Assembly: GCA_034722055.1 (NCBI GenBank)
Contig: JAYENL010000298.1
Span: 1 to 19,192 of the forward strand
Length of the DNA: 19,192 nucleotides
Source: Armatimonadota bacterium
GTDB lineage: Bacteria; Armatimonadota; Zipacnadia; Zipacnadales; UBA5352
Direction: 5' to 3'
A program made the position numbers and the translations under genes. Numbering within the stretch: position 1 is the first letter of the stretch; every line of letters begins with the position of its first letter. Under the pieces are notes generated by a model. The model saw only the letters and a list, made by a program, of their open reading frames with translations. It did not search any database and was not told the origin of the DNA. Shown here one piece after another: positions 535 to 16,471 of the stretch.

Positions 535-715
535 AGATGAAGAGCGTCGGTGGGCGCCGGGTTTCCAGCACGGGACACCCATCCTTCGGGGGGGGGGTGG
601 CCGCAGGCAGAGACAAACAACGGCCTCCGGCCTGGACTGAGGCAGGGGGGAGAAGCGCATAGCGCTCCCGACCGGGGCTACACCGACACTGCCGATTGGC
701 ACCCCAGACCGCGGC

Positions 716-1528
716 TCACTTCACCGCCCCGGCGGTCAGGCCGCGCACGATGTGGCGCTGGAAGAGCAGGTAGAGCAGCATCAGCGGCACCACCGCCACC
801 GTCACTCCCGCCAGGATCGCCCCCCAGTTGGCGATGTGCTCCCCCTGGAAGCTCAGCAGCCCCACCGGCAGCGTGTAGTGGCCCGTCTGCTTGATGAACA
901 CCAGCGCGAAGGGCAGCTCGTTCCAGATCCAGGCGGCCTGGAAGATGGCCACCGTCGCCACCGCCGGCCGGGCGATGGGCATGAAGATCGCCCACAGGAT
1001 GCGCAGGTGGCCCGCGCCGTCCATGATGGCCGCCTCCATCAGCTCCCTGGGGACCTCCACGAAGTAGGCCCGCAGCAGCAGCGTGGACAGCGGCAGTCCG
1101 AAGGCCACGTAGGGGCCGATGATCGCCAGGTAGTCGCCCACGTTGAGCGCGGCATTGAGCTGATACAGCGGTATCAGCACCGCGTGCGCCGGGATCAGCA
1201 GCCCGGTGAGGATGAAGCCCAGCACCAGCGAGGAGGCCCGGAAGCGCAGCCGCGCGAAGGCGTAGGCCGCCGGGGCGCTCAGGGCGATGATCAGCGCCAC
1301 CGAGATGACCGTCACGGCTGTGGAGTTGAGCAGGTAGAGGCCGATGTGGCCCTTCCAGGCCGCCACGTAGTTGTCCACGTAGGCCCGATCCGGCAGCCCC
1401 CAGGGCTCCACGCGCAGGGCGTTGCCGGGCCGCACCGAGCCGATGATCGTCCAGATCAGCGGCAGCATGAACACCAGCGCCAGCAGCGCGAAGAGCCCGT
1501 CCGCCAGCCACGCCGTCGCCCGGCGCAT
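716..1528 (-). CDS. Carbohydrate ABC transporter permease (MalG/UgpE-like), 270 aa
   Basis: This is the C-terminal part of track ORF 716..2890. The real start is the ATG at 1528, overlapping the upstream TAA (TAATG) and preceded by GGAGG. It has the EAA loop (ELMEAAIMDGA), AYAFARLRF, WNELPFAL and a C-terminal FQRHIVRGLTAGAVK. Confidence 0.95.
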   Translation of the reverse strand: MRRATAWLADGLFALLALVFMLPLIWTIIGSVRPGNALRVEPWGLPDRAYVDNYVAAWKGHIGLYLLNSTAVTVISVALIIALSAPAAYAFARLRFRASSLVLGFILTGLLIPAHAVLIPLYQLNAALNVGDYLAIIGPYVAFGLPLSTLLLRAYFVEVPRELMEAAIMDGAGHLRILWAIFMPIARPAVATVAIFQAAWIWNELPFALVFIKQTGHYTLPVGLLSFQGEHIANWGAILAGVTVAVVPLMLLYLLFQRHIVRGLTAGAVK

Positions 1529-2403
1529 TAGCCGAATGCCTCCTCCCGCCGCGTCAGGCGCAGGTAAATGGCGGTGGCGATGAGGGTCAGCACCAGCATC
1601 ACGGTGGCGATGGCCGCGGCGTAGCCCATGCGGTCGTCGCTGAAGGCGGAGCGGTACATATAGGTGGCGAGCACCTCGGAGGCGTGGTTGGGGCCGCCCT
1701 CGGTCATCACCCAGATGAGGTCGAAGATCTTCACGGAGCCGACCGTGATCAGCAGCGCATCCACCAGCACGATGCGCTTCATCAGCGGGAGTGTGATGTG
1801 CCAGAAGGTGCGCCAGGCGCCGGCGCCGTCGATGCGCGCCGCCTCGTACAGATCCTCGGGAATGGCCTGCAGGCCCGCCAGCAGGATCATCATGTGAAAG
1901 CCCGTGTAGCGCCAGCAGGAGACGGCGATGATGCACAGCGTAGCGAGCTGTGGGTCGCCCAGCCACCCGGCGGTCCACTGCTGGGCACCAAGGCGCTCCA
2001 GCAGGGCGTTGAGGGCCCCGAAGTTCGGGTCGTAGAAGAGGGTCCAGATGAGCCCCACGGCCACCGCGGGCACGATCAGCGGCGAGAAGAAGAGCGTGCG
2101 CAGAAGCCGGTGGCGGCGCAGCGCCGAGCCGATCGCCACCGCCAGCAGCATCGCCAGGGGGAGCTGAACCGCTAGCGACAGGACGATCCACAGGGCGTTG
2201 TTCTTCAGCGCCGTCAGCAGCACCGGATCCTGGAGCAGATCGGCGTAGTTGCCGAGGCCCTTCCAGGTGCGCACGGGGCGCAGCGCGCTCCAGGAGTAGG
2301 CGCTGAGGACGATGGTGTGCAGCAGCGGATAGGTGATGTAGAACGCGAAGACGGCCAGCGCGGGGAGCACGAGCAGCCAGGCTGTGAGGGGTCGGTGACG
2401 CAT
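1528..2403 (-). CDS. Carbohydrate ABC transporter permease (MalF/UgpA-like)
   Basis: Motifs include GLGNYADL, EAA loop LAGLQAIPEDLYEAARIDGA, FWHITLPL, MTEGGP and MGYAAAIA. The start may be 2403 or 2415; the GGAG at 2417-2420 is too close to 2415. Confidence 0.95.
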   Translation of the reverse strand: MRHRPLTAWLLVLPALAVFAFYITYPLLHTIVLSAYSWSALRPVRTWKGLGNYADLLQDPVLLTALKNNALWIVLSLAVQLPLAMLLAVAIGSALRRHRLLRTLFFSPLIVPAVAVGLIWTLFYDPNFGALNALLERLGAQQWTAGWLGDPQLATLCIIAVSCWRYTGFHMMILLAGLQAIPEDLYEAARIDGAGAWRTFWHITLPLMKRIVLVDALLITVGSVKIFDLIWVMTEGGPNHASEVLATYMYRSAFSDDRMGYAAAIATVMLVLTLIATAIYLRLTRREEAFG

Positions 2404-2433
2404 GGTTCGATGCATGCTCCCGGGGGTAGCGGG

Positions 2434-3813
2434 CTACCCGGTCTGCGCGCCGACGGTGGTGCCGCCGGCGGCCTCCAGCTCCTCCTTCACCTCCGCCTGG
2501 CGCTCGCGGATGTCCTCCAGGATCTGCTCCGGATCCGTGGAGCCCTCGATGAGGGCCTGGCAGCCGTCCAGCAGCACCTCCGCCACCTGCCGGGCCATCA
2601 GCGTGTCGGCCCAGGGCACGATGGTGCTGGCCCGGGCAACCTGCCTGGCGTACTCCTGCAGATGCACGTCGGCATTCTCTTCGGTGACCGCGCCATCGAC
2701 CAGCACCAGCTCCTTGCACCGGTCCACGAAGAGGCGGGCGGACTCCAGGGAGTTGAGGTGCTGCAGGAAGGTGATGGCGTCGTCGGGATGCTCGGTCTTC
2801 GAGGAGATCACGTAGCCGTCGGCGCCGCCGTGCAGCGCCTGCTGGTTCCCGGCACCGCCGGTGGCGCGCGGGAAGTTGAACCAGGCCCACTTGTCCCAGA
2901 ACTCCTCCGGGGCCTCCCCGCCCTCGCGGAAGTTGTTGAGGTTCCAGGTGCCCGTGTAGAACATGGCGGCCTCGCCGGTGTAGAACAGGGCACGGGCGTT
3001 CTCGCGGGTGGTGCCGTTGGGAGCGCGGTTGAAGAAGCCGCGCTCCACGAACTCCTGGAACATCTCCAGGCCCTGCAGGTAGCCGGGATCGTCATACCGC
3101 CCCGGCCCCAGCGGGTCGAAGTCCTCCAGAAGCTGCTGCTCGCCGATGAGCCGCTGCCACAGGCAGGAGACGTAGTGATGCGCGGGCCACTTCACGGAGT
3201 TCCCGAGGGCGATGGGGGTGACGTCGGCCTGCTTGAGCGCCTCGCAGACGTCCACGAGCCCGGTCCATGTGCCCGGGATCGGCAGATCCTGCTGCTCGAA
3301 CAGCTCCGTGTTGTAGAAGAAGAACGTGCACTGGCGCAGGAAGGGGATGCCGTAGCTCTCGCCCCCGAAGGTGTACCACTTCAGGGCGTCGCCCATAATG
3401 CGCTGGCGCCAGGCGCCATCGTTGGCGTTGAGCGCGTTTGTGATGGGCAGCACATTCCCGCCGCGGACGAAGTTGTGCAGCCACTCGCCGCTCCACACGA
3501 AGAACACATCCGGCGGCTCCCCCGAGCCCACCGCCACCCGGATACGGGTCTTGTAGGCGTCCGGCTCCACGGGCGTGACATTGACCTTGATGTCCGGATG
3601 CTGAGCCTCGAAGTCCGCAACGATCTCCGCCAGCGCCGACTTGCGAGGCTCGGTGCTCCAGATGGTCCACATCTCCAGCTCGACCGGCTCGCCCTCCGCC
3701 ACGCCCGGACCTGCGGCGGGCGGCGGCGTCACCTCCTCGCCGCCCGGACAGCCGACGAGCAGGAGAGCCCCGACGAGGGCCCAGCCGAGCGCGAGTGCGA
3801 TGTCGCGACGCAT
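2434..3813 (-). CDS. Carbohydrate ABC transporter solute-binding lipoprotein (SBP family 1), 459 aa
   Basis: Lipobox LLLVGC, FEAQHPDIKV, GEPPDVF, YGIP, FYNTELF and FYTGEAAM motifs. An AAGGAG RBS lies at 3824-3829, and the gene is adjacent to two permeases. Confidence 0.95.
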   Translation of the reverse strand: MRRDIALALGWALVGALLLVGCPGGEEVTPPPAAGPGVAEGEPVELEMWTIWSTEPRKSALAEIVADFEAQHPDIKVNVTPVEPDAYKTRIRVAVGSGEPPDVFFVWSGEWLHNFVRGGNVLPITNALNANDGAWRQRIMGDALKWYTFGGESYGIPFLRQCTFFFYNTELFEQQDLPIPGTWTGLVDVCEALKQADVTPIALGNSVKWPAHHYVSCLWQRLIGEQQLLEDFDPLGPGRYDDPGYLQGLEMFQEFVERGFFNRAPNGTTRENARALFYTGEAAMFYTGTWNLNNFREGGEAPEEFWDKWAWFNFPRATGGAGNQQALHGGADGYVISSKTEHPDDAITFLQHLNSLESARLFVDRCKELVLVDGAVTEENADVHLQEYARQVARASTIVPWADTLMARQVAEVLLDGCQALIEGSTDPEQILEDIRERQAEVKEELEAAGGTTVGAQTG

Positions 3814-4493: not shown

Positions 4494-7400
4494 ATGCACC
4501 AAAGCCGTCACCTGCCTACTTGCACCCCTGTCATCGCGCTCCTGGCGCTGCTGATGTCGGTGTTCTGTGCGGCCGACCCCCTGGACGACATCGAGGAGTT
4601 CTTCGACGACGCGGGGCTGTTCCAGGGCATCCAGGTCAGCGGGAGCAACAGCTTCACGCTGCAGGGCCACGCCCTGGAGGGATCCAGGTCGGCATTCGAG
4701 GGCCAGCGGTGGGATACCGGCTCGCTGGTTCGCCGCAGCAGCCTGCACATCGAGGGCCCCATCTGGCAGAACCTGGGCGTCCAGGCCGACATCTCCTCCA
4801 TCGGGTGGGGCCGCAGCTATAACCGCTTCGTCCTGGGCTGGACCACCGACGAGACCGCGCTGTACTACGGGGATCTCAACGTCCGGCTGACGGGGAACGA
4901 GTTCGCCAGCTTCAACAAGACCCTGGAGGGCTGGCAGCTCGACCAGGCGCTGCCCAACAACGGCCTGCTGCGGGCGTTCTACTCCCGTGAGAAGGGCCTC
5001 ACCCGGCGGGAGACCATCAACGGCAACAACACCTCCGGGCCGTTCTTCCTCCGCTACACCCCCATCATCGAGGGCAGCGAGGTGGTGAAGGTCGATGAGG
5101 AGGTCATGCGCTTCGGCCGGGACTACCGCCTCGACTACGAGACCGGCCAACTCAAGTTCGAGCCCGTGGACGGCCCTCCCCGGATCATCCCCAGCACCTC
5201 CGTGATCTCCGTCAGCTACCAGTCCTACGGGTGGCAGAGCACACCGGGGAACCTCTACGGTGCGCGGGCGGAGATGCCGCTGATGGGCGACAAGATGCTG
5301 GTTGGGCTGACGGCGCTGATCCAGGACAGGCGCGATCCCAGCAGCGCCGGCGACACCGCGGGCTTTCAGGAGGACATCTTCCAGGGCTCGGGCAGCACCG
5401 GCCCCTTCGACGTGAACTTCCGCCCCATCCTGCCCAACGGCGCCACCGTGGTCTACGAGGGAGAACGGCAGACTATCGACCAGACCGTGGTGGTGCTGGT
5501 GGACAACGTGGAGCAGGTGCAGGGCGTGGACTACGACGTCTACCACGACATCGGGCGCATCATCTTCCGCCGCGCGGTGCCACCGACCTCGCTGGTCATC
5601 ATCCGCTACTACTATGATCTCGGCGAGCCGCTGGTGGGTGGGGACTCCAGGGTCGTGGGCCTGGACCTGGGCTGGCGTGTGGCGGAGGGCATGACCCTGC
5701 GGGCGGACTGGGCGCAGAGCGACCAGGACGCCGACGGCCTCAGCGGCCAGGCGCTGCGCAGCAGCCTGTCGTTCTCCCGTCCGCGGCTGAACGCCACGCT
5801 GGAGATCCGGGACGTGCAGCCGGAGTTCAGCTACCTCGAGACCGTGGGCTTTCAGCGCAAGGAGAAGGGCCTCAACTTCGCTGCCCAGTGGCAGGCGAAT
5901 GACCACATCTCCGTCTACGAGCGCTTCTCCAAGCTGAAGAGCGACAGCGGTCTGCTGTTCGGCTACAGCGGCTACACAGGTTACTCCGGCGGGGTCACGC
6001 GCACATTCGGCGTCAGCCCGGCACAGACGACCGCCAGCAGCCTGGAGACCAACACCCAGCGCAACGACTTCGGCGTGGACGTCCGCTATCCCGGCTGGCC
6101 GACGCTGAGCTTCACGCGCCAGGACATGGAGAACAGCGGCGGCTCCCGCGGCGACAGCCGCAACAGCACCAACAGCCTCACGCTCAACTACTCCCCCCGC
6201 GAGCAGCCCTACAGCCTCCGCCTGGCCCTCAGCGACAGCAGCCAGCGCTATCTGGGGGCCGACGCCGGGGGGGCTCTGGGACAGCCCCGCGGCTCCTCCA
6301 CCGACCAGACGCAGCTCTCGGCCCAGTACTCCCCCACCTCGACGCTGAGTCTGGGCGCGCACTTCGGGACCAACAGCGCCACCTCGCTGGGAGAGGCGGG
6401 TAGCTCCAGCAGCACCGTCAGCCAGCTTTCGGCGTCGTGGAGGCCATCCACCCGGCTGAGCCTGAACCTCGACCACACCATGTCCGAGTCTGACGGCGCG
6501 GTGACCAGCGGCTTCTACGGGGGGATCGGCGGCTTCGGGACAGGGAGGCTGACGCCCTACCAGATCCCCGGCAACCCCGGCGGGGGCGGTGGCGAGATCC
6601 CCGACGAGGACGAGGAGGAGCAGGAGCGGTCGCGGTACGAGGACACCGACACCCGGCTGAGCCTCAACTACAGACCGGCTAAACGGGTGGACCTCAGCCT
6701 CTCGGCCGGCTGGCGAGACTATACCAGCGGCGGTGGCGTGGGCTATCTCGCCGACAGCGAGCAGACCTACTACAACGCCTCCGCGAGCTGGCGGCTGGGG
6801 CAGGGCCTGGCGCTGACAACCACGTGGGGCAGCGACGAGATGCGCTTTCTGGAGGAGGACCGCGGCACGATCACCAACGACATGCTGTCCCTGGGGCTGA
6901 ACTACCGGCCGGAGGGACAGCCCTGGGGCCTGGGCGTGAACCTGCACCGGCAGACGGGCAGCAGCCCCACCTCCGTGGGCTTTGGCGACAATCAGGTGAC
7001 CCGCGTGGTGCCCACCGACCTGTTCGACATCTCCGGGGAGCTCAGCTACGACCTGGGTCCTGGGATGAGCCTCTTCGGCCGCCTGGGGCGCGCGGATTAC
7101 GACAGCGGCTACGCCGTCTTCACCAAGGACACCGGCGAGGTGGGGCTGCGCTACCGGATGAGCGACCTGGCGGACATCAACTTCGGCTACCGGTACATCC
7201 GCAATATCAGCGGGGAGCCCGACCTGCCGCTGCCGGGCGCCGTGGGCGGCGCCAGGTCCGGCCAGAACTACATCGCTCACACAGTCATGCTCGGCCTCTC
7301 CAGCAACTTCACCAGCGGCCTCGGCTCGGCGGGACGGACCGGGCCTGCCGGCTACTCGGGCTACGGCGGCGCCATGTCGAGCTTCGGCGGCTACGCCATC

Positions 7401-7838
7401 GGCGGCTACGCGGGCGGCTACGGGTACGGAGGAAGCGGCCTGGGCGACTTCTCGGGCGCCAGCACCTATCGGCGCACGGGGCTGTCGGGGGGCTATGACC
7501 GTGGGGGCTACACGGCGACGCCCTTCGGGGGCGGCGGGATGACCGGCGGGACGGGGTGGCGATCGCAGGACTTCTCGGCCGGCGCCAACATCGCGCGCGG
7601 CTCCAGCGCCACCTACCAGCCGAGAGTGGGACGGCGCGGCGAGGGCTTCGAGGTCGGGGAGGGCGAGTTCCGCCGGGAGACTGAGGAGCAGAGGATGCAG
7701 CAGCCGCCGGCCCCCTTCGGGCCCGGGGGCGAGATGCGGCGGCGGCCCGGCGAGCGTCCGCCGCTGGGGCAGCGGCCACCTGAGGGCGAGGCCCGGAGGC
7801 GCGAGGACGTGCACAGGTGGTGGCAGTGGTATGAGTGA
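4494..7838 (+). CDS. Large predicted outer-membrane beta-barrel protein with SprA-like motifs, 1114 aa
   Basis: ATG 4494 follows GAGGT (4479-4483) and begins a hydrophobic signal peptide. The protein has many amphipathic strands with aromatic ends (LTLNYSP, LSAQYSP, LSASWRP, LSLNYRP, LGLNYRP, VGLRYR). It carries two copies of G-x-x-GPF...I...V.VD.....G.DY...Y..G.(L/I).F and a GDLNV...NKTLEG...YSREKG segment recalling the SprA N-terminal region, plus a Gly/Tyr-rich C-terminal tail. Confidence 0.8.
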   Translation: MHQSRHLPTCTPVIALLALLMSVFCAADPLDDIEEFFDDAGLFQGIQVSGSNSFTLQGHALEGSRSAFEGQRWDTGSLVRRSSLHIEGPIWQNLGVQADISSIGWGRSYNRFVLGWTTDETALYYGDLNVRLTGNEFASFNKTLEGWQLDQALPNNGLLRAFYSREKGLTRRETINGNNTSGPFFLRYTPIIEGSEVVKVDEEVMRFGRDYRLDYETGQLKFEPVDGPPRIIPSTSVISVSYQSYGWQSTPGNLYGARAEMPLMGDKMLVGLTALIQDRRDPSSAGDTAGFQEDIFQGSGSTGPFDVNFRPILPNGATVVYEGERQTIDQTVVVLVDNVEQVQGVDYDVYHDIGRIIFRRAVPPTSLVIIRYYYDLGEPLVGGDSRVVGLDLGWRVAEGMTLRADWAQSDQDADGLSGQALRSSLSFSRPRLNATLEIRDVQPEFSYLETVGFQRKEKGLNFAAQWQANDHISVYERFSKLKSDSGLLFGYSGYTGYSGGVTRTFGVSPAQTTASSLETNTQRNDFGVDVRYPGWPTLSFTRQDMENSGGSRGDSRNSTNSLTLNYSPREQPYSLRLALSDSSQRYLGADAGGALGQPRGSSTDQTQLSAQYSPTSTLSLGAHFGTNSATSLGEAGSSSSTVSQLSASWRPSTRLSLNLDHTMSESDGAVTSGFYGGIGGFGTGRLTPYQIPGNPGGGGGEIPDEDEEEQERSRYEDTDTRLSLNYRPAKRVDLSLSAGWRDYTSGGGVGYLADSEQTYYNASASWRLGQGLALTTTWGSDEMRFLEEDRGTITNDMLSLGLNYRPEGQPWGLGVNLHRQTGSSPTSVGFGDNQVTRVVPTDLFDISGELSYDLGPGMSLFGRLGRADYDSGYAVFTKDTGEVGLRYRMSDLADINFGYRYIRNISGEPDLPLPGAVGGARSGQNYIAHTVMLGLSSNFTSGLGSAGRTGPAGYSGYGGAMSSFGGYAIGGYAGGYGYGGSGLGDFSGASTYRRTGLSGGYDRGGYTATPFGGGGMTGGTGWRSQDFSAGANIARGSSATYQPRVGRRGEGFEVGEGEFRRETEEQRMQQPPAPFGPGGEMRRRPGERPPLGQRPPEGEARRREDVHRWWQWYE

Positions 7839-10818
7839 CTGCCGCGGCGGCCATCTTCCCGCCGCCGTCCTCGTGACGATCCTTGCTCTCGCCTCGGCGC
7901 CGCCCTCGGTCGCGTCCCCGTTTCGCAACATCGTGAACGAGCCCTTTGCCACCGTCTCCAACGGACCGCAGGGGGCCATCGTGGTGGATGAGAGCGCCAT
8001 CACCACCGCCGAGGCCGGTGACGCGGTCTCGGCCGCCATCCGCACCCAGCACAGCGTGCGCGCCCTGGCCCGGGCCCGGCACAGCCTGGAGACGCTCCAG
8101 CGCCTGGGGCTGAAGAGCCCTCAGGCGCGGGCGGCCTTCCCGCGGCGGCTGGTGAGGATGCGCGAGGGGCGCATCGTGGCGCCCGATCTGATCCGCGCCC
8201 GGCAGGCCGGCGACGGCCTCGGCGGCGCGACCAACGAGCTGCGCTTCACCTTCGAGGGCTTCGAGGAGGCTGACGAGACCGCGCTGCGCGATTACCTGAG
8301 CAGAGCGCTGCCGGTGGCCTACAACGTCTACGGCCGCCCGGCCTTCGACCTGGACGTGACCGTCATCCTCGACGAGGAGCTGGCGGAGCTGCAGGGCGGC
8401 GTCTACGACGCCTCGGCCAACGAGATCCGGCTGGCGCCGCTCTCGGGGAACTTCCCCGAGGACTCCTTCATCCTCCTGATCATGGTCCTGCAGGCCTTTC
8501 ACGATGACGCGGGCTTCTTCTACGACGCCTGGGAGCTGGGCTTCGCGGGGGCGGCCGCCACAGTGGTTCAGACGCGTCCGGGCGTGGCGCCGGGCTACGA
8601 TCCCATCGATCCGGGGCCCTTCTACGCCACCAGCGTCTACGAGCCGCAGAACCAGCAGGACCTGGGCGGCCCGACCTTCTACCCGCCCTCCGGCTGGGCC
8701 GGGATGCTGGTGTGGCGCGTGGCCATGGCGCGCAGCGCCTGGTTCAAGTGCTGGGTGGAGGACAACGACTTCTTCCGCCGCTTCAACCGCGCCTACTACG
8801 ACAGCTTCACCGAGACGCTGCCAGGAGACGTCCCGGCCCTGCGGGTGCTGGCGGCACAGGTGCTGCCGGAGGTGGAGGGACTGGCATTCCAGGAGTGGTA
8901 CCAGCGCCAGTGGGTGCTGGACACCAGCGTGCGCATCGGGCCGAAGCTGTTCATCTGGAACATCCCGCTGACGCAGTCGGTGGCGCTGATCGCGGAGCAC
9001 TTCTACACCACATTCCAGGGCGATGAGGAGCCGCGCGGCGGGCAGGCGCGCACCACCTACTGGAGCTATGACTTCCGCACCTCGCTGTACGCCGAGGAGG
9101 GCAACACCATCAGCATCCCCGCCTCCGGTGAGGGGGCCGGTGAGGGCTTTTTGATCCCCACCTTCTTCAACATCGGCGGGCCGCAGAACATCACGGTGCA
9201 GGTGGACCTCGGCTCCCTGCGGCGGAACCTGCCCTTCCCCTACGACCAGCGCGGGTTCGAGCTGGGCGAGAACAACCTCTACGGGTCCATCATCACCGCC
9301 ACCCAGGGGACCATCGACGTGGAGGGCGGGGCGGGCCTGGAGGACGTGGCCGTTCGGCGCGGCGTGTGGGGCGACCGCATCACGCAGGCGACCCTGACGC
9401 CCCAGCAGCTCCGCATCACCTTCACGAATCAGGACGAGCAGTCGATCACGCGCGTGTTCAACGTGGCCTGGGACTCCTACGTGACCTTCCTGCACGGCGG
9501 GCAGCAGCGGGCGCTGACGAAGAAGTGGTCGGCTGACCCGCCTGGACTGCACCTGATCTCCTTCCCGGTTCGGCCCCTGACGCAGGACCTGGCGGCGCTT
9601 CTGGAGGTGGATCCCGACCGGCTGCTGGTGGCCCGCTGGGACCCGAGCCTGCCGGGGGAGAGCAAGTACGCCATCTGGCCGCGGACGGAGCCGGTGGCGC
9701 CCGGCCGCGGCTACTGGCTGCGCATCTTCGACGACGTGAATCTCTCGCTGCAGGGGGTGCAGGAGCCACAGGAGCGGCCGGTGGTGGTGCCGCTGAAGGT
9801 GGGCTGGAACATGATCGGGCCGCCTCGCACTGAGCCGGTGGAGGTGGCGTCCCTGCAGTTCGCGGCCGAGGGGGAGGCGGCCGTGGACTACGCCGAGGCC
9901 GTTGAGCGGACCATCATCCAGGAGGGCATATTCGGCTACTCGTCCGAGGAGGGCTACACCATCGAGGAGACCCTCCGGCCCTTCGCCGGCTACTGGATAC
10001 GCTGCCTGCGGGCCGACGGCGCGCTGATGCGCTTCCCGGCCGTGAGCGTGTCCTCGGCGCAGGCCTCAGCATCCGCGACCCCTGCCGGCGGCGACGTGCG
10101 GTGGCGGCTGCCCATCGTGGCGGAGGCTGCCGGCATGCGCGGCTCGGCGTGGATAGGAGCCGCCTCGGACGCCGCCGACGGCCTGGATCGCCACGATCTG
10201 CAGGGCCCGCCGGCGTTCGGCCCGCACGTGAGCGTGCGGCTGGATCCGGCCGGCGAGGGCAGTGCTGCATACATCAGCGATGTCCGGCCGGCGGGAAGCG
10301 AGGGGGCCTGCAGGCTGCGCGTGCTGAGCACGCTGCCCGGCCAGGCGGTGCGGCTGAGCTGGCCGGACCTGAGCGAGCTGCCCGAGGATTTGGCGCCGAT
10401 GCTCGTGGACGAGGCCGCCGGAAGCCGCACCTACATGCGCACCACCGCGGGCATGGAGCTGCCGGGCGGCGACGAGGGCGTGGATCGCGCGCTACGCGTG
10501 GAGCTGCGGAGCCGCTGCGACGCGCCGCTGATGGTCAGCGCCATGTCGGCGATGCAGGCGCCGGGCTCGGCGGCACAGATCGTCTTCAGCCTCAGCGTGC
10601 CGGCCGACGTGGAGGTGGCGGTTCTGAACATTGCCGGTCGGCCGATCCGGGGGCTCGGCGGCGGCCTGCAGGCGCCCGGACAGAGCACGCTGAGCTGGAA
10701 TCTTCGGGACAATGGAGGGCGGCTGGTGCCCAGCGGGCTCTACCTCGTGCGCCTGCGCGCCCGGGATGACAGCGGCCGCCAGACCCAGGCGCTGCGCCCG
10801 CTGCAGATCAACCGATGA
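7831..10818 (+). CDS. Secreted multidomain protein with a degenerate gluzincin-like domain and a C-terminal FlgD-Ig/T9SS-like sorting domain, 995 aa
   Basis: Signal peptide ends near PSVA-S. Motifs are GGVYD...EIRL...LIMVLQAFHD...AWELGFA and the paired GLHLISFPV...PGRGYW / LKVGWNMIGPP...PFAGYW. The C-terminus reads IVFSLSVPADVEVAVLNIAGRPIRGL...LSWNLRDNGGRLVPSGLYLVRLRA. The gene overlaps the upstream one by 8 nt. Confidence 0.85.
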   Translation: MSDCRGGHLPAAVLVTILALASAPPSVASPFRNIVNEPFATVSNGPQGAIVVDESAITTAEAGDAVSAAIRTQHSVRALARARHSLETLQRLGLKSPQARAAFPRRLVRMREGRIVAPDLIRARQAGDGLGGATNELRFTFEGFEEADETALRDYLSRALPVAYNVYGRPAFDLDVTVILDEELAELQGGVYDASANEIRLAPLSGNFPEDSFILLIMVLQAFHDDAGFFYDAWELGFAGAAATVVQTRPGVAPGYDPIDPGPFYATSVYEPQNQQDLGGPTFYPPSGWAGMLVWRVAMARSAWFKCWVEDNDFFRRFNRAYYDSFTETLPGDVPALRVLAAQVLPEVEGLAFQEWYQRQWVLDTSVRIGPKLFIWNIPLTQSVALIAEHFYTTFQGDEEPRGGQARTTYWSYDFRTSLYAEEGNTISIPASGEGAGEGFLIPTFFNIGGPQNITVQVDLGSLRRNLPFPYDQRGFELGENNLYGSIITATQGTIDVEGGAGLEDVAVRRGVWGDRITQATLTPQQLRITFTNQDEQSITRVFNVAWDSYVTFLHGGQQRALTKKWSADPPGLHLISFPVRPLTQDLAALLEVDPDRLLVARWDPSLPGESKYAIWPRTEPVAPGRGYWLRIFDDVNLSLQGVQEPQERPVVVPLKVGWNMIGPPRTEPVEVASLQFAAEGEAAVDYAEAVERTIIQEGIFGYSSEEGYTIEETLRPFAGYWIRCLRADGALMRFPAVSVSSAQASASATPAGGDVRWRLPIVAEAAGMRGSAWIGAASDAADGLDRHDLQGPPAFGPHVSVRLDPAGEGSAAYISDVRPAGSEGACRLRVLSTLPGQAVRLSWPDLSELPEDLAPMLVDEAAGSRTYMRTTAGMELPGGDEGVDRALRVELRSRCDAPLMVSAMSAMQAPGSAAQIVFSLSVPADVEVAVLNIAGRPIRGLGGGLQAPGQSTLSWNLRDNGGRLVPSGLYLVRLRARDDSGRQTQALRPLQINR

Positions 10819-12026
10819 TCAGCGGCGGCCGGAGGGTGAGGCGGTCGCGCCGCCCTTGCCGGGCGGGCGCGGCGGCGCTGCTGAGCATAGTGATGGTGAC
10901 GGTGGCGCTGGCCTGGGGCTGCGGGGGGCTGCCGCCCATGGAGGAGGGGCAGGGGCAGGGCGCCGTGGTGGTGATGGTGGTGGAGGAGGAGACCAACGAG
11001 CCGCTGGAGGTGCCGGCCACCGTGATCGTCGGCGGCGTGCGCGGGACCCTCAAGCCCAGTGACGAGCAGCTTGTGCTGCGCGACGTGCCGCTGGGAACCG
11101 GCACGCCGCCCACCCAGCCGATGACCGTCACGGCCGCCGGGTATGTGACGCGCACGCAGCAGGTGCAGCTCAGCATCACCACCGCGACCTGGGTCACGGC
11201 CACCGTGCAGGCGGCCGACACCGCCATCACCGGGACGGTCTCAGGCACGGTGAGCGACGTCGAGACCGAGGAGCCGGTGGTCAACGCCTTCGTGCAGTTC
11301 ACGCCGCCGGATGCCGCCGAGCCGCTCGTGGCCGGCTACACCGACAACGACGGCGCATTCATCATCGGCGGCATCCCCGAGGGAGAGCGGCAGGTGACAG
11401 TGGAGGCAGGCGGCTACCTGCCGCGCTCGGAGGTCGTGAAGATCACCGCCGACGATGACGGCGAGAACGAGCCGCTGGAGGTCACCCTGGTAGCCGGCGA
11501 TACCACCGTGACGGTCACGGGCGTGGTGGTGGACGTGCTCACGCGCCAGCCCATCGCCGACGCGGAGGTCTCCATCGCGGAGCTCGACCCGGTCACGACC
11601 GGCGCCGATGGCCGCTTCGAGGTGGCGGACGTGCCGGTGGGCGATCAGCCCGCGAAGGCGACGGCCCAGGGCTACGAGGAGTTCGCCGGGACCGTCACCG
11701 TGCTGCCCGGCATGGGGGACCTGGTCATCGAGCTGTTCGAACGGGCCGAGGACCCGCCGGGTGCGCCCTTCACCCTCGCCGGTACGGTGACGCTCAGCGG
11801 CGCACCGGATAACTCCGGGGCCCAGGTGACGGCGGTGGACATCGACGCCGCGCTGGCCGCCGACAGCCAGGTCACCGGGCCGTCCGGTCGCTATGAGCTG
11901 TTCGTGCCGCCGGGCCGCTACGAGGTGAGGGTGGTGGTGGGCGAGCGGTCGCTGGCCCGCGAGGTGACGGTGCCCCCGGGCGGCGTGGTGGTTGACGGGA
12001 TCGACTTCGTGCTCACCGTGGAGTGA
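10815..12026 (+). CDS. Lipoprotein with about four carboxypeptidase-regulatory-like (Cna-B/transthyretin-like) domains, 403 aa
   Basis: Arg-rich N-region, hydrophobic stretch and lipobox LAWG-C. Repeats of G.V.D..T..P...A.V...T..DG.F....P.G...V.A.GY. ATGA overlap with the upstream gene. Confidence 0.85.
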   Translation: MISGGRRVRRSRRPCRAGAAALLSIVMVTVALAWGCGGLPPMEEGQGQGAVVVMVVEEETNEPLEVPATVIVGGVRGTLKPSDEQLVLRDVPLGTGTPPTQPMTVTAAGYVTRTQQVQLSITTATWVTATVQAADTAITGTVSGTVSDVETEEPVVNAFVQFTPPDAAEPLVAGYTDNDGAFIIGGIPEGERQVTVEAGGYLPRSEVVKITADDDGENEPLEVTLVAGDTTVTVTGVVVDVLTRQPIADAEVSIAELDPVTTGADGRFEVADVPVGDQPAKATAQGYEEFAGTVTVLPGMGDLVIELFERAEDPPGAPFTLAGTVTLSGAPDNSGAQVTAVDIDAALAADSQVTGPSGRYELFVPPGRYEVRVVVGERSLAREVTVPPGGVVVDGIDFVLTVE

Positions 12027-12059
12027 GTGCGCGCAGAGGACAGTGAGGAGCGTGCTTCG

Positions 12060-12680
12060 ATGAGGATCGGCTGGCGGATACTGCTGGGAATGGCGCTGAC
12101 GGCGGCGCTCGTGGTCGCCGCACCGGGCTGCGGAGGGGGCGGCGACGGTGGAGGTGGTGGGAGTTCGGCCACCGTGCAGGGCACGGTGCACGACGACGGG
12201 ACGCTGCAGCCGATCAACGGGGCCACGGTTGCCGTGGGCTCCGAGACCGCCACGACGAGCGCGAACGGGAGCTTCTCCCTCGAGACCACCTCCGGAACGC
12301 GAACCATCTCAGTGAGCGCCGCCGGCTATCAGGACGTGGAGCTGACCGAGACCCTTGCACCCGGCACTAACTCCCTGGGAGCGATCTATGTGGAGCCGGA
12401 GCTGGAAGAGGGGAAGGGCGCGGTGACCGGGATGGTCACCTCTAGTGGCGCGGCCGCGCCAGGTGCGACGCTGGTCAGCGGCAACGCCCGGGCCACCGCC
12501 AAGCCTGACGGCAGCTACGCGCTTTACAACATGGAGGCCGGCGAACGGGGGATCACAGCCGTCTCGGCCGACGGAACGACCACCGGCTGGGCAACGGTTG
12601 ACGTGGAGGACGGCGAGACGACCACGGGGGTCAACATCGCGCTGACACTGTCGCCGCCGCCTCCGCCGCTGCTACAGTAG
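12060..12680 (+). CDS. Lipoprotein with two carboxypeptidase-regulatory-like domains and a poly-Pro tail, 206 aa
   Basis: ATG 12060 follows GAGGAG (12045-12050). Lipobox APG-C is followed by a Gly linker and GTVHDDGTLQPINGATV...NGSFSL...SAAGY. The protein ends SPPPPPLLQ. Confidence 0.85.
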   Translation: MRIGWRILLGMALTAALVVAAPGCGGGGDGGGGGSSATVQGTVHDDGTLQPINGATVAVGSETATTSANGSFSLETTSGTRTISVSAAGYQDVELTETLAPGTNSLGAIYVEPELEEGKGAVTGMVTSSGAAAPGATLVSGNARATAKPDGSYALYNMEAGERGITAVSADGTTTGWATVDVEDGETTTGVNIALTLSPPPPPLLQ

Positions 12681-12692
12681 GTCGCGAATGCA

Positions 12693-13370
12693 ATGCTCTC
12701 CACCCGGGCGCGAAGGCTTCTGGCCGGACTGCTGCTGGTAGCGGCGGCAGGGGCGGCGGCGTGGCTGGTCAGCACGCTGGTGACCCGCCCGGAGGAGCCG
12801 AGGGATGATGCCCGCGAGGCGGGCGCTCCGGCGGTGTCCATCCGGGAGTCGATGGTGGAGCACTCGCGAGGGGGAGAGCCGGCGTGGCGGCTGAGCATCG
12901 AGGACCTGCAGATCTCGGGCGGGGGACGCACGGTGGCGGCGGCGGGGCTCCGCGAGGGCCTGGTGTATGATGAGGGAAAGCCAGTCGTACGCATCTCCGC
13001 CGGAGAGGCCATCTACAACACCTCCGACAAGAGCTTCGAGGTTACCGGCGGGGTGAAGGTCGTCTCACATCAGGGCGCCATCATCACCACCGGCACGGTC
13101 CAGTGGCTGCCCGCCAGCCAGACGCTGCACTGCCCGGGCGAGGTGACGCTGCGGGCTGAGGGAATCACGGTGCGCACCGAGAATCTCGATCTCATCGTCC
13201 CCAAGGACATCGTGCGCACCACCAGCCGCGTGCAGCTTCGCACCGAGCACGGCCAGCTCACCGGCCGCGACCTGACCTACAACCTGAAGACGCGCGACTA
13301 CACGCTGAGGTCGGTCCAGGCCGTCTTCACCGTGGAGTCCGCGCGCGAGGAGCTGGAGCGACTGCAATGA
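12693..13370 (+). CDS. lptC: LptC-like LPS export periplasmic bridge protein, 225 aa
   Basis: A single N-terminal membrane anchor followed by beta-jellyroll motifs (G.PAWRL, ISAGEAIYN, VTGGVKV, ITTGTVQW, PGEVTL, LTGRDLTYNL). It lies directly upstream of an LptA-like gene. Confidence 0.75.
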   Translation: MLSTRARRLLAGLLLVAAAGAAAWLVSTLVTRPEEPRDDAREAGAPAVSIRESMVEHSRGGEPAWRLSIEDLQISGGGRTVAAAGLREGLVYDEGKPVVRISAGEAIYNTSDKSFEVTGGVKVVSHQGAIITTGTVQWLPASQTLHCPGEVTLRAEGITVRTENLDLIVPKDIVRTTSRVQLRTEHGQLTGRDLTYNLKTRDYTLRSVQAVFTVESAREELERLQ

Positions 13371-14296
13371 GGGGATTGCGAGCGCTGCTGTGGATGCCGA
13401 TTGCGTGCCTGATGGCCGTCCCGGCGATGGCCCAGGAGGCCGAGCCGGAGGAGCCGGGCGGCATCGCCGAGGACGAGGACCGGGCGCGCATCGAGTGGGC
13501 GGACGAGCTGCGCTACGACGCCGACCAGGCCACCTACCACCTGTCGGGCAATGTGGTCTTCTCCCACCAGGACATCAGGCTCTACTGCGACCGGGCGGTC
13601 TACGACTACGACGCCAACAGCGCTGAGGCCACGGGCAGTCCCCGCGTCGAGAGCCCTGATACCACCATGACCGGGGAGCTCATCGAGGCCAACTTCGACG
13701 ACGAGGTGGCGGTGGTAACCGGCACGGTCACGGTGGTCACTCAGCGCAAGAAGGAAGAGGAAGAGGGCCAGGACGACGAGCAGCAGCCCTCCGAGTCCGA
13801 GCAGCAGCCCTCGGAGTCCGAGGAGACGGAAGAGGACGAGGAGGGCGAGCCCCGCAAGCTGGAGGACTACTGGGAGAAGAAGACCACCATCACCTGTGAG
13901 AAGATCGTCTACGAGTACGCCGAGGACGTCAAGCGCGCCACCGCCACCGGGCGCGTCAAGGCCGTCCAGGAGGACAAGACGGTATATGCTGACAGGGCGG
14001 TTTACGAGGAGCTCAAGGATCTCATCACGCTCACAGGGGACGTCCGGGTGCTCACCGACCGCGGGGACGAGTTCCGCTGCCCGAAGGCCGTGATCTCCGT
14101 GGAGGAGGACTGGGTGCGGGCCGAGCAGGTCACCGGCGTGGGCAAGCGCCGCGAGGAGGAGGAAGAGGAGGAGAGCTCCGAGGGGGCCGCTGCCCAGGAG
14201 GAGCAGCAGGAGCCAGCAGAGGGCGGAGGCGCGCAGGAGCAGCCGCCGGAGGGCGGAGAGGAGTCGCAGGGCTCGGAGGAATCCGGGGAGGGCTGA
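13367..14296 (+). CDS. lptA: LptA/OstA-like periplasmic beta-jellyroll protein with acidic insertions, 309 aa
   Basis: Signal peptide (AMA-Q) and OstA motifs ADELRYD, LSGNVVF, LYCDRAVYD, ATGRVKAVQ, ADRAVY, LTGDVRV. ATGA overlap with lptC. Confidence 0.8.
   Translation: MRGLRALLWMPIACLMAVPAMAQEAEPEEPGGIAEDEDRARIEWADELRYDADQATYHLSGNVVFSHQDIRLYCDRAVYDYDANSAEATGSPRVESPDTTMTGELIEANFDDEVAVVTGTVTVVTQRKKEEEEGQDDEQQPSESEQQPSESEETEEDEEGEPRKLEDYWEKKTTITCEKIVYEYAEDVKRATATGRVKAVQEDKTVYADRAVYEELKDLITLTGDVRVLTDRGDEFRCPKAVISVEEDWVRAEQVTGVGKRREEEEEEESSEGAAAQEEQQEPAEGGGAQEQPPEGGEESQGSEESGEG
13778..13819 (+). repeat. In-frame 21-bp tandem duplication encoding EQQPSES x2
   Basis: GAGCAGCAGCCCTCCGAGTCC and GAGCAGCAGCCCTCGGAGTCC differ by one synonymous base. 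Confidence 0.9.
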
Positions 14297-14355: not shown

Positions 14356-16332
14356 TCAGAACGGCATGTGGGTGATGGACTGCTTCACCAGCACGACGGC
14401 GATGGCCAGCATGGCGACCAGGCCGGTGCCGCAGGCGAAGCCCGCATAGAGCACCGGCGGCCAGACACGCCAGTTCTCCTCCCCGAAGCGCTCCCGCATG
14501 TAGTAGCGTCCGATGAGCGCGCCGATGAACTGCAGCGTCAGGTAGTGCGGGATCTGACCCATGCCGCGGATCCACCCGTAGATGAGCAGCACCGGCATGC
14601 GCAGCCAGTTGAGGAGAGAGTAGATGCCGAGGCCGAAGACCAGCCCGCCGACCATCAGCCAGGGCTTGATGGCGCGCTGGAAGATCTCCTGGTGTCCGCC
14701 CTCGGTGGTGGAGCTGAACCACACCCACTGAGTGATGGCCTGGTAGCCCCACATCTTCTGGGCGTAGGGGTAGTAGACCGACGGGATGGGCTGCAGGCGC
14801 CACACGTAGCCCCAGAAGATGAAGCTGGTGACGATCATGATGGGGAACATCAGCAGCTCGGCCTTCAGCACGCTGGTGAACTTGTTGCCGGTCAGCTCAA
14901 TCTCCCTGAAGCGCTGCACCGTGCGGCCGTAGTTGCCCAGCGGAATGGGCGCGAACCAGATGTCTACACCCTTGTAGCCGCTGAGGATGAAGGTGGCCTC
15001 CCGGATCATGGGGATGGCGACGAACTGGCCGGTCAGGCCCACCATGCGGGCGTTGATGTAGGACTGCAGCGGCGTCCAGAAGTACCCGTAGATGATCAGG
15101 AAGATGATCGGGAACCTGGGGACCAGAATGCGGCACAGCACCACGTAGCCGGTGGTGGCTGCGAAGAACAGGGCCAGGCAGATCCAGACCTTGAAGTCGC
15201 CGCGGCCGGGGATGCGCCTGCCGAAGCCGAAGCCGGCGCTGTCGCCGGTCTCGTCGTACTCGCGCCATTCCACGATCATCTTGTAGACACCGAGGAAGGC
15301 GATGGAGAATGCGGTCCCGATGCCGAAGGACAGCCAGATGTCGATGCGCGTGGCCCACAGCGTCCGCGTCGTCTCCATGCCGGGCCGCCACGTGGGCAGG
15401 TGGCCGGTCAAGTAAGCGATAGGGTTGATGATCGCTGTAGTCATCACCGCCGTGAAGCTGCCCACCACCATCCAGAACGGCAGCACCATGCCCAGCATGA
15501 GGGTGGCCATGTTGGTCCCAATGCCCGTAGGCACCCCGGGCAGGAAGCGCTCCGTGCCCTGCGTGAAGTCAATCCAGGGGATGGGGAGGATGTGGACCGG
15601 CTGGATGAGGACTGCACCCGTCAGCGTGGGGACTGCCACGTAGATGAGGCCGAAGCCGATGCCCACCATGCTGCCGATAGAGAAGATGCGCCAGCGCCAG
15701 GTCTCCTCCTTGGTCTGAGCCTCAGCCAGGGCGGTCGCCCCCTGAGCCTGGATGGGCGCCAGTGGGAATGGAAGCTCCTCGCCGTCCGACAGCAGTCGAA
15801 AGAGAGAGTAGCCCAATGTGAACCAGGCCACGCGCGAGAAGACCTGCGTCACCAGCAGAACTCCGATGGCGGGAAGCCAGTCGGGGTGCATGAACGTCCG
15901 CTGAGCGATGGCCTCCGAGTGTGGAGCTGGCGCGACCCACTGAGGTACCTGGGAGACCAGGTCGCCTGGGGCCTGGGCACGGAAGAACTGATTCCAGACC
16001 AGTCGGGCGAATGGCCCTCCGGAGAGAGCCACGCCGCCCATCATAGCGGTCAGGCCGCCAGCGATGTAGTAGAGGATGTAGATCTGCTGGCGGCTGAGGG
16101 TGGCGAAGGACCGCCGGGCGATCTCCGTGAAGAGGATGATGGTCGTCCACTCGGCGGCCGGGCCCATGGTCTGACCCGCCACCAGCCCCAGGTAGATGGA
16201 GCCCGGCATCATCACGAAGCCGATGAAGAACGCCCCCACGACCGTCTGCCAGCCGAATCCGTCCTCGTACTCCTCCGGCGCCTCCATCAGCGAACGGTAT
16301 TCCGCCAGCTCCTGAGTCTCTCGCAGTGCCAT
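14356..16332 (-). CDS. OPT/YSL-like polytopic membrane (peptide) transporter, 658 aa
   Basis: ATG 16332 follows GGAG (16341-16344). The protein has more than 12 hydrophobic segments, N-terminal motifs YLGLVAG...LS.QQIYIL and ELPFPLAP...ATALA resembling OPT-family L.FP...A.A, and a C-terminal helix VLYAGFACGTGL. Confidence 0.75.
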   Translation of the reverse strand: MALRETQELAEYRSLMEAPEEYEDGFGWQTVVGAFFIGFVMMPGSIYLGLVAGQTMGPAAEWTTIILFTEIARRSFATLSRQQIYILYYIAGGLTAMMGGVALSGGPFARLVWNQFFRAQAPGDLVSQVPQWVAPAPHSEAIAQRTFMHPDWLPAIGVLLVTQVFSRVAWFTLGYSLFRLLSDGEELPFPLAPIQAQGATALAEAQTKEETWRWRIFSIGSMVGIGFGLIYVAVPTLTGAVLIQPVHILPIPWIDFTQGTERFLPGVPTGIGTNMATLMLGMVLPFWMVVGSFTAVMTTAIINPIAYLTGHLPTWRPGMETTRTLWATRIDIWLSFGIGTAFSIAFLGVYKMIVEWREYDETGDSAGFGFGRRIPGRGDFKVWICLALFFAATTGYVVLCRILVPRFPIIFLIIYGYFWTPLQSYINARMVGLTGQFVAIPMIREATFILSGYKGVDIWFAPIPLGNYGRTVQRFREIELTGNKFTSVLKAELLMFPIMIVTSFIFWGYVWRLQPIPSVYYPYAQKMWGYQAITQWVWFSSTTEGGHQEIFQRAIKPWLMVGGLVFGLGIYSLLNWLRMPVLLIYGWIRGMGQIPHYLTLQFIGALIGRYYMRERFGEENWRVWPPVLYAGFACGTGLVAMLAIAVVLVKQSITHMPF

Positions 16333-16471
16333 GGGCTCTACTCCATGTTGTCCGGCCCTCGAATGGCAGGGCCGCGGCTTCAACGGGGTTTGACCTGGCG
16401 TTGATTCACCGCGGGGCCAGACTCCACCTCCCGCGGCGACGAACGAATCCTACCAGCATGCCCGGACGCCG

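Follow-up and report, generated by a model that had tools for sequence, protein, structure and literature searches.

The stretch of DNA analyzed here, the 19,192-nucleotide contig JAYENL010000298.1 (the window) from an Armatimonadota bacterium (assembly GCA_034722055.1), carries a gene, P0001, for a predicted outer-membrane beta-barrel protein of 1114 amino acids (aa). Profile comparisons leave us nearly certain that this protein is a true homologue of SprA; judged by the score that defines the SprA family and by the extracellular cap, it is not a member of that family. We consider it probable that a minimal type-IX-like secretion pathway operates here, outside the Fibrobacterota–Chlorobiota–Bacteroidota (FCB) group, with the barrel as its exit pore. 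A first-pass annotation of the same DNA had raised the idea of a minimal translocon, and this idea gained independent support from the co-occurrence of the barrel with cargo-like proteins and from its gene neighborhood. We found no description of such homologues in the open-access literature (supplements lay outside its scope), and the available parts of PMC12204202, PMC7323717 and PMC12419801 make no mention of them.

The barrel gene is present in a single copy, as indicated by comparison with its own genome, and is the only gene of the genome to match the SprA model TIGR04189. On its own the protein scored 13.6 bits (E 0.0068), far short of the curated cut-off of 200 bits; 37 out of 50 family members matched the model, with a best E of 3e-21. 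Longer relatives were mostly SprA, with PF14349 (SprA_N) detected in 17 out of 27 in one search and 74 out of 96 in another. We compared family profiles with two largely non-overlapping SprA alignments, of 19 and 26 sequences, and paired values are given below in that order. Residues 32–406 were colinear with SprA (99.3% and 98.9%). Strands 1–7 without any insert scored 97.4% and 96.8%, compared with 0.2–0.3% for the controls (reversed and unrelated-barrel), bearing out the kinship with SprA that the first-pass annotation had suggested. Inserted domain 1 matched the SprA domain at the equivalent place (98.5% and 98.1%) and, more weakly, a second domain copy in the same SprA loop (82.6% and 88.6%); strands 8–9 scored 84.7% and 90.0%. 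Two further candidate matches were set aside: that of strands 10–15 and 16–23 (88% in a whole-profile run) was dropped, the separate segments giving 2–23%, and that of strands 24–34 was rejected after a PorV-like control scored 93.7%. A Pfam search with the full-length protein returned no match, and the SprA chain was absent from the matches of Protein Data Bank (PDB) searches with the protein and the family profiles.

The two inserted domains have their motifs where the earlier annotation placed them, at 5010–5222 (residues 173–243) and 5370–5615 (residues 293–374). Its claim that they are related also held: BLASTP aligned them with an E of 2e-7, none of 5000 shuffles equaled the score, and the family profiles matched at 99.6%. 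By profile count, 101 of 135 members have two copies, 22 have one and 12 have three. Taken alone, the inserted domain is promiscuous, matching the phage distal-tail family DUF2460/TIGR02217 in 11–12 out of 50 members as well as unrelated secreted proteins. The phage or gene transfer agent distal tail protein Rcc01695 (DUF2460, TIGR02217; PDB 6TBA) shares the small inserted domain (PDB E 0.44) but has no barrel, and tblastn of plasmid and phage collections with the barrel protein gave no match. The combination of phage-type domains with an ordinary TonB-dependent receptor, which would have spoken against a link to SprA, was not what we found: SprA strands were matched, no TonB-dependent receptor family appeared among the Pfam and NCBIfam matches of 50 members, and the estimated strand number is 32–34, not 22. 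Family searches with the barrel protein and the 50 members likewise gave no match to LptD, which combines an N-terminal jellyroll with a 26-strand barrel.

Barrel size was estimated on the family alignment, with amphipathic windows picked by a script and additions made by eye. The script found 38 windows, 32 of them outside the inserted domains, and two additions brought the count to about 34 between residues 46 and 939. The strand number, estimated at 32–34, is probably near the 36 of SprA given in the accessible part of PMC10994853. With fewer than half of the residues of SprA and some 34 estimated strands, the protein probably lacks inserted mass, namely the large SprA inserts, rather than strands. 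The earlier description of the barrel as half-sized therefore stands for residues (939 versus about 1850–2700 in the SprA matches) and probably fails for strands. Similarly, position 7310, given as the end of the feature, is the codon of Phe939 and the end of the barrel, whereas the open reading frame runs on to a stop at 7838. Phe939 is kept in 131 out of 135 aligned homologues and lies at most five residues from the C-terminus in 88 of the 135; the Gly/Pro-rich tail that follows it here (residues 940–1114) is present in 45 out of 46 close homologues and in none of 89 distant ones. Assuming the usual topology of outer-membrane barrels, inserted domains 1 and 2 would lie in outward loops 7/8 and 9/10.

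The protein and SprA/Sov (TIGR04189, PF14349; Flavobacterium johnsoniae structures) share strands 1–9 and the inserted domain in the same order, a C-terminal Phe, one copy per genome, and co-occurrence with type-A-like tails and PorV-family barrels. Apart from the shorter barrel part, they differ in several respects. Loop 7/8 is about 300 aa shorter here and lacks the SprA inserts; the SprA insert of about 600 aa after strand 11 is absent, by a weak alignment only; and the second domain copy lies in the next loop, whereas that of SprA lies in the same one. There is no large cap, which in SprA exceeds 150 kDa (PMC12611786, consulted in part), but just two domains of 75–85 aa and Gly-rich loops. 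GldL, GldM, GldN and PorU were not found here, in weak tests. The host belongs to Bacillati, whereas SprA is termed FCB-specific in the accessible portion of PMC12611786, whose supplementary SprA distribution table may bear on that range. In unrooted trees of about 230 columns, the groups of homologues separated, with a SprA clade free of Armatimonadota (support 100% for 66/69 rows and 0.99 for 69 rows), and the base came out without resolution or root. Because the position of the SprA clade had no support (50%; 0.2–0.9) and the trees have no root, they favor neither an ancestral form nor one reduced from SprA.

The genome also encodes proteins resembling type IX cargo. Fifteen of its 16 FlgD_ig matches end 14–17 aa before the stop codon, in frames of 650–2140 aa. 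These tail-bearing proteins comprise subtilases, propellers, and PKD, beta-helix and Ig-repeat proteins; signal peptides were visible by eye in most of them, and one frame was cut by a contig end. About 400 C-terminal residues are common to 14 of the 15, and the remaining protein has the last 90 only. Searched against the PDB, the tail profile matched the tails of PorU (E 1e-4) and PorZ (E 0.02), and the sorting-domain model TIGR04183 gave ten weak matches in the genome, one above the cut-off. The pairing that marks type IX cargo, a Sec signal with a C-terminal type-A domain, was thus found in 15 proteins, mostly below the TIGR04183 cut-off. The last residue of the tail is a near-invariant Arg; T9SS (type IX secretion system) tails have a near-invariant Lys near the end (PMC10994853, as far as available).

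Among 150 Armatimonadota genomes, the full-length barrel gene, called at E < 1e-50 with the threshold in a wide gap, was present in 91 and absent from 59; its family reaches Fimbriimonadia, a class with cultured members. Using a tail profile (A8, E ≤ 1e-5) that had been built from barrel-positive genomes alone and is biased toward them, we detected the tail domain in all 91 barrel-positive genomes (median five copies) and in 28 out of 59 others (median zero). At 1e-14, a cut-off chosen after the data were seen, the counts were 90 out of 91 and 5 out of 59, three of the five being single misses in positive families. The unbiased Pfam tail model, applied to the first 80 genomes, gave 51 out of 51 and 19 out of 29, respectively. 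Tail position tells more than tail presence: 29 out of 30 inspected matches in barrel-positive genomes were C-terminal, compared with 0 out of 11 in barrel-negative genomes (five genomes), where all 11 were internal or N-terminal. In six other cargo clusters, all 14 tail matches were terminal; the genomes with these clusters include G056, one of the three single misses.

A PorV-family profile, which matches the PorV of PDB 6H3I (E 6e-11), found genes in 40 out of 51 barrel-positive and 7 out of 29 other genomes, ten of these by construction. In six out of eight loci inspected in other genomes, a cargo cluster closed with an LptD-like gene and, after it, a PorV-family gene. The cargo cluster of this genome, at C111:4247-22313 (L150; compare L142–L147), consists of tail-bearing genes and ends with the LptD-like gene, which elsewhere is often followed by a PorV-like gene. 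The clustered LptD-like gene has an N-terminal Ig-like domain and is missed by Pfam LptD and NCBIfam. A search of this genome for PF19572 found none; BamA is present, as are four ExbB/MotA-family genes unlinked to the barrel locus. C25 peptidases were detected in 4 out of 12 genomes, without identification as PorU.

The same pairing of barrel and tail appeared in a second lineage. Scanning metagenomes with a five-domain relative as query, we obtained ten loci, and in all nine with downstream DNA the gene next to the barrel ended in the tail domain. The six neighbors tested were all subtilases with tails above the curated TIGR04183 cut-off. In three loci, the protein names point to WOR-1/Ca. 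Saganbacteria, Bacillati near Cyanobacteria, and one barrel (UniRef100_A0A1F4SHP2) carries the database label 'Cell surface protein SprA', for which we found no study. Of the stand-alone relatives retrieved from other phyla, these barrels (P0303–P0305, P0408) are the closest (99.8%), and they likewise have a neighbor with a T9SS tail; they differ in length (1335–1380 aa), in having five domain copies and in the convergent orientation of the partner gene. The Saganbacteria loci represent one syntenic event, independent of Armatimonadota.

The alternative that survives best, which we nevertheless rate as unlikely, is a surface docking platform in which cargo that has crossed the outer membrane by other means is bound, through its shared C-terminal module, by the barrel and its outward-facing domains. 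Such a platform accounts for the co-occurrence equally well, and the roughly 400 aa common to 14 of the 15 cargo proteins go far beyond what a sorting tag needs; yet one cargo protein has the 90-aa tail alone, and the Saganbacteria partners bear a canonical T9SS sorting domain. Some orthologues of C1, the partner gene directly downstream of the barrel gene, lack the tail and retain the part upstream of it, the copy number of the inserted domain ranges from one to five, and a passenger is fused to the barrel in DUF11-type relatives, all of which would suit docking. It would have no need of a wide barrel, however, and the cargo clusters are flanked by PorV-family genes.

The barrel gene is the first of an apparent operon with overlapping or abutting starts and stops, followed by C1, two predicted lipoprotein genes, LptC and LptA. 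We sampled 41 loci, this one and 40 spanning the families, some of them cut by contig ends. Near the barrel gene we observed C1 in 25, carboxypeptidase-regulatory-domain genes in 24, a CsaB-like gene in 20, DUF5693 in 18, a tail-bearing gene in 14, LptC/A in 13 and a PorV-like gene in one. The frequency of CsaB-like, DUF5693 and LptC/A neighbors, together with the failure of Pfam LptD to detect a gene in the genome, would fit a pore for envelope biogenesis that passes a glycolipid or cell-wall polymer with LptC/LptA or CsaB/DUF5693, the link with tails reflecting shared lineage ancestry. This reading ranks second among the alternatives and is improbable, given that a separate LptD-like gene exists at C111:4247-6244 (by weak LptC-jellyroll similarity and sequence reading, without a family match), that the full-length barrel gene is absent from 59 of the 150 genomes, and that the Saganbacteria loci lack these neighbors and keep the tailed partner. 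An 'LptD substitute' as the leading explanation was rejected; strands 1–7 do not match the separate LptD-like gene (0.3%).

Other barrels extend the family. The C-terminal barrels of giant DUF11/OmpA proteins (for example, P0265 and P0388) match over their full length (99.8% over 698 columns) and have one inserted domain at the equivalent place; they differ in their large fused N-terminal passenger and single domain copy. Within Armatimonadota, DUF11-type fused barrels of about 2100 aa occur in family f9 (L056, L096–L099, L101, L102), a family without the stand-alone gene in which the FlgD-like domain is embedded between SLH-like repeats of a protein of about 650 aa. Stand-alone barrels of about 1230 aa (P0309, P0316) have one insert copy and a probable degenerate N-terminal copy and bear no family name; from sequence style, we would guess an FCB origin. 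Armatimonadota barrels of 600–1300 aa (L052–L058, L095, L104, L105), found in barrel-positive and barrel-negative genomes, have no Pfam family, place one inserted-domain copy first and lack strands 1–7. In the barrel-negative family f28 (G073 L087, L090–L093), several large secreted proteins carry an FlgD-like Ig domain directly after their signal peptide, which may point to a sister system whose tag is N-terminal, and genome G073 also has short one-domain barrels (L053, L057). The control genome of Thermus thermophilus contained a weak match to TIGR04189, which may be a further superfamily member. The least probable alternative, a member of the wider SprA-related superfamily with another substrate and functionally nearer to the ~1230-aa or DUF11/OmpA-fused barrels than to SprA, is in keeping with the existence of those relatives, with the short single-domain barrels (600–1070 aa) of barrel-negative Armatimonadota and with trees that give no good support for joining the family to SprA, but it leaves unexplained both the C-terminal tag pattern and the tailed neighbor in two phyla.

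Several observations weigh against the barrel being a type-IX-like exit pore. Strands 10–34 have no specific SprA match, and the last eleven strands scored 77.6% and 2.3% against SprA, compared with 93.7% for the PorV-like control. The family scores higher against DUF11-passenger barrels than against SprA, and the ~1230-aa relatives, which match at 98.5%, are uncharacterized. The PorV-family genes (NF033709) detected in 30 out of 60 genomes were all below the cut-off, 11 of the 51 barrel-positive genomes had no detected PorV-family gene, and the two candidates of this genome are distant (E 2e-11 and 4e-8) and unlinked to cargo; moreover, FadL-family barrels also include BamG, according to the part of PMC12611786 available. 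GldM was not found in this genome. GldL above the cut-off and GldN were each found in 0 out of 12 genomes, in a weak test whose positive controls were silent. No PorU orthologue was found, NF033707 matching tail regions only. No T9SS tail matches the tail profile as well as flagellar FlgD does, and C1 is without the tail in several families. Beyond the profile bias and the choice of cut-off given above, the genomes are related, so the co-occurrence signal amounts to 24 positive versus 15 negative families rather than 150 independent cases. Finally, the single Saganbacteria event involves convergent barrel and subtilase genes, without an operon.

Table 1. Predicted features of the barrel gene and its operon in the window
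Feature	Position	Strand	Remarks
SprA-related outer-membrane beta-barrel gene (P0001)	4494..7838	+	ATG to stop, 1114 aa
Predicted Sec signal peptide, about residues 1–26	4494..4571	+	By eye; same place in homologues
Predicted barrel strands 1–7	4629..4997	+	Specific homology to SprA N-terminal strands
Inserted domain 1, predicted extracellular loop 7/8	4998..5228	+	Matches SprA domain, same place
Predicted strands 8–9	5250..5324	+	Match SprA strands after its domain
Inserted domain 2, predicted loop 9/10	5361..5618	+	Duplicate of domain 1
Predicted strands 10–34, ending at Phe939	5646..7310	+	Generic outer-membrane hairpins (PF13505, E 0.0014), no SprA specificity
Gly/Pro-rich low-complexity tail, residues 940–1114 (175 aa)	7311..7835	+	Close homologues only
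Partner gene C1, 995 aa	7831..10818	+	Start overlaps barrel stop; C-terminus is the shared cargo module
C-terminal module of C1, about 400 aa	9568..10815	+	Last 90 aa (10546-10815) form FlgD-Ig / T9SS type-A-like tail
Two predicted lipoproteins	10815-12026, 12027-12680	+	Carboxypeptidase-regulatory-like domains; lipobox by eye
LptC-like and LptA-like genes	12693-13370, 13367-14296	+	Close the operon

The N-terminal region of C1 (7831-9560) has no family match and contains conserved WE.G, NQP and VEG motifs; our impression is of a possible metallopeptidase-like fold in degenerate form. On the minus strand, 14356-16383 encodes a 675-aa multi-pass membrane protein without a family match, found in 3 out of 21 related loci, which we take to resemble oligopeptide-transporter-like proteins. 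Sugar ABC transporter genes (a binding protein and two permeases) at 678-3813, also on the minus strand, are divergent from the barrel operon.

In the type-IX-like pathway that we favor, cargo would cross the inner membrane by Sec, fold in the periplasm and enter the wide, ~34-strand pore tail first, passing out together with a small PorV-like barrel or being transferred to one. The duplicated domains would face outward as a reduced cap replacing the large one of SprA, and C1 would be a dedicated cargo or an accessory subunit. It is quite possible, although short of probable, that Armatimonadota and Saganbacteria, two lineages of Bacillati distant from the FCB group, use such a minimal type IX system, with a SprA core of about 100 kDa that lacks the large cap, tagged cargo, a PorV-like carrier and no GldLM, and that SprA, DUF11 barrels and these proteins form one wide-pore superfamily that predates or crosses the deepest double-membrane split. 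SprA has been described as requiring a huge extracellular cap and the proton-driven GldLM motor. If our reading is true, a natural capless version without a recognizable motor would show which translocon parts are essential and would offer a smaller target for structural work and reconstitution. It would also account for the export of subtilases and surface proteins in a phylum about which little is known, and hypotheses on how type IX secretion arose could be tested.
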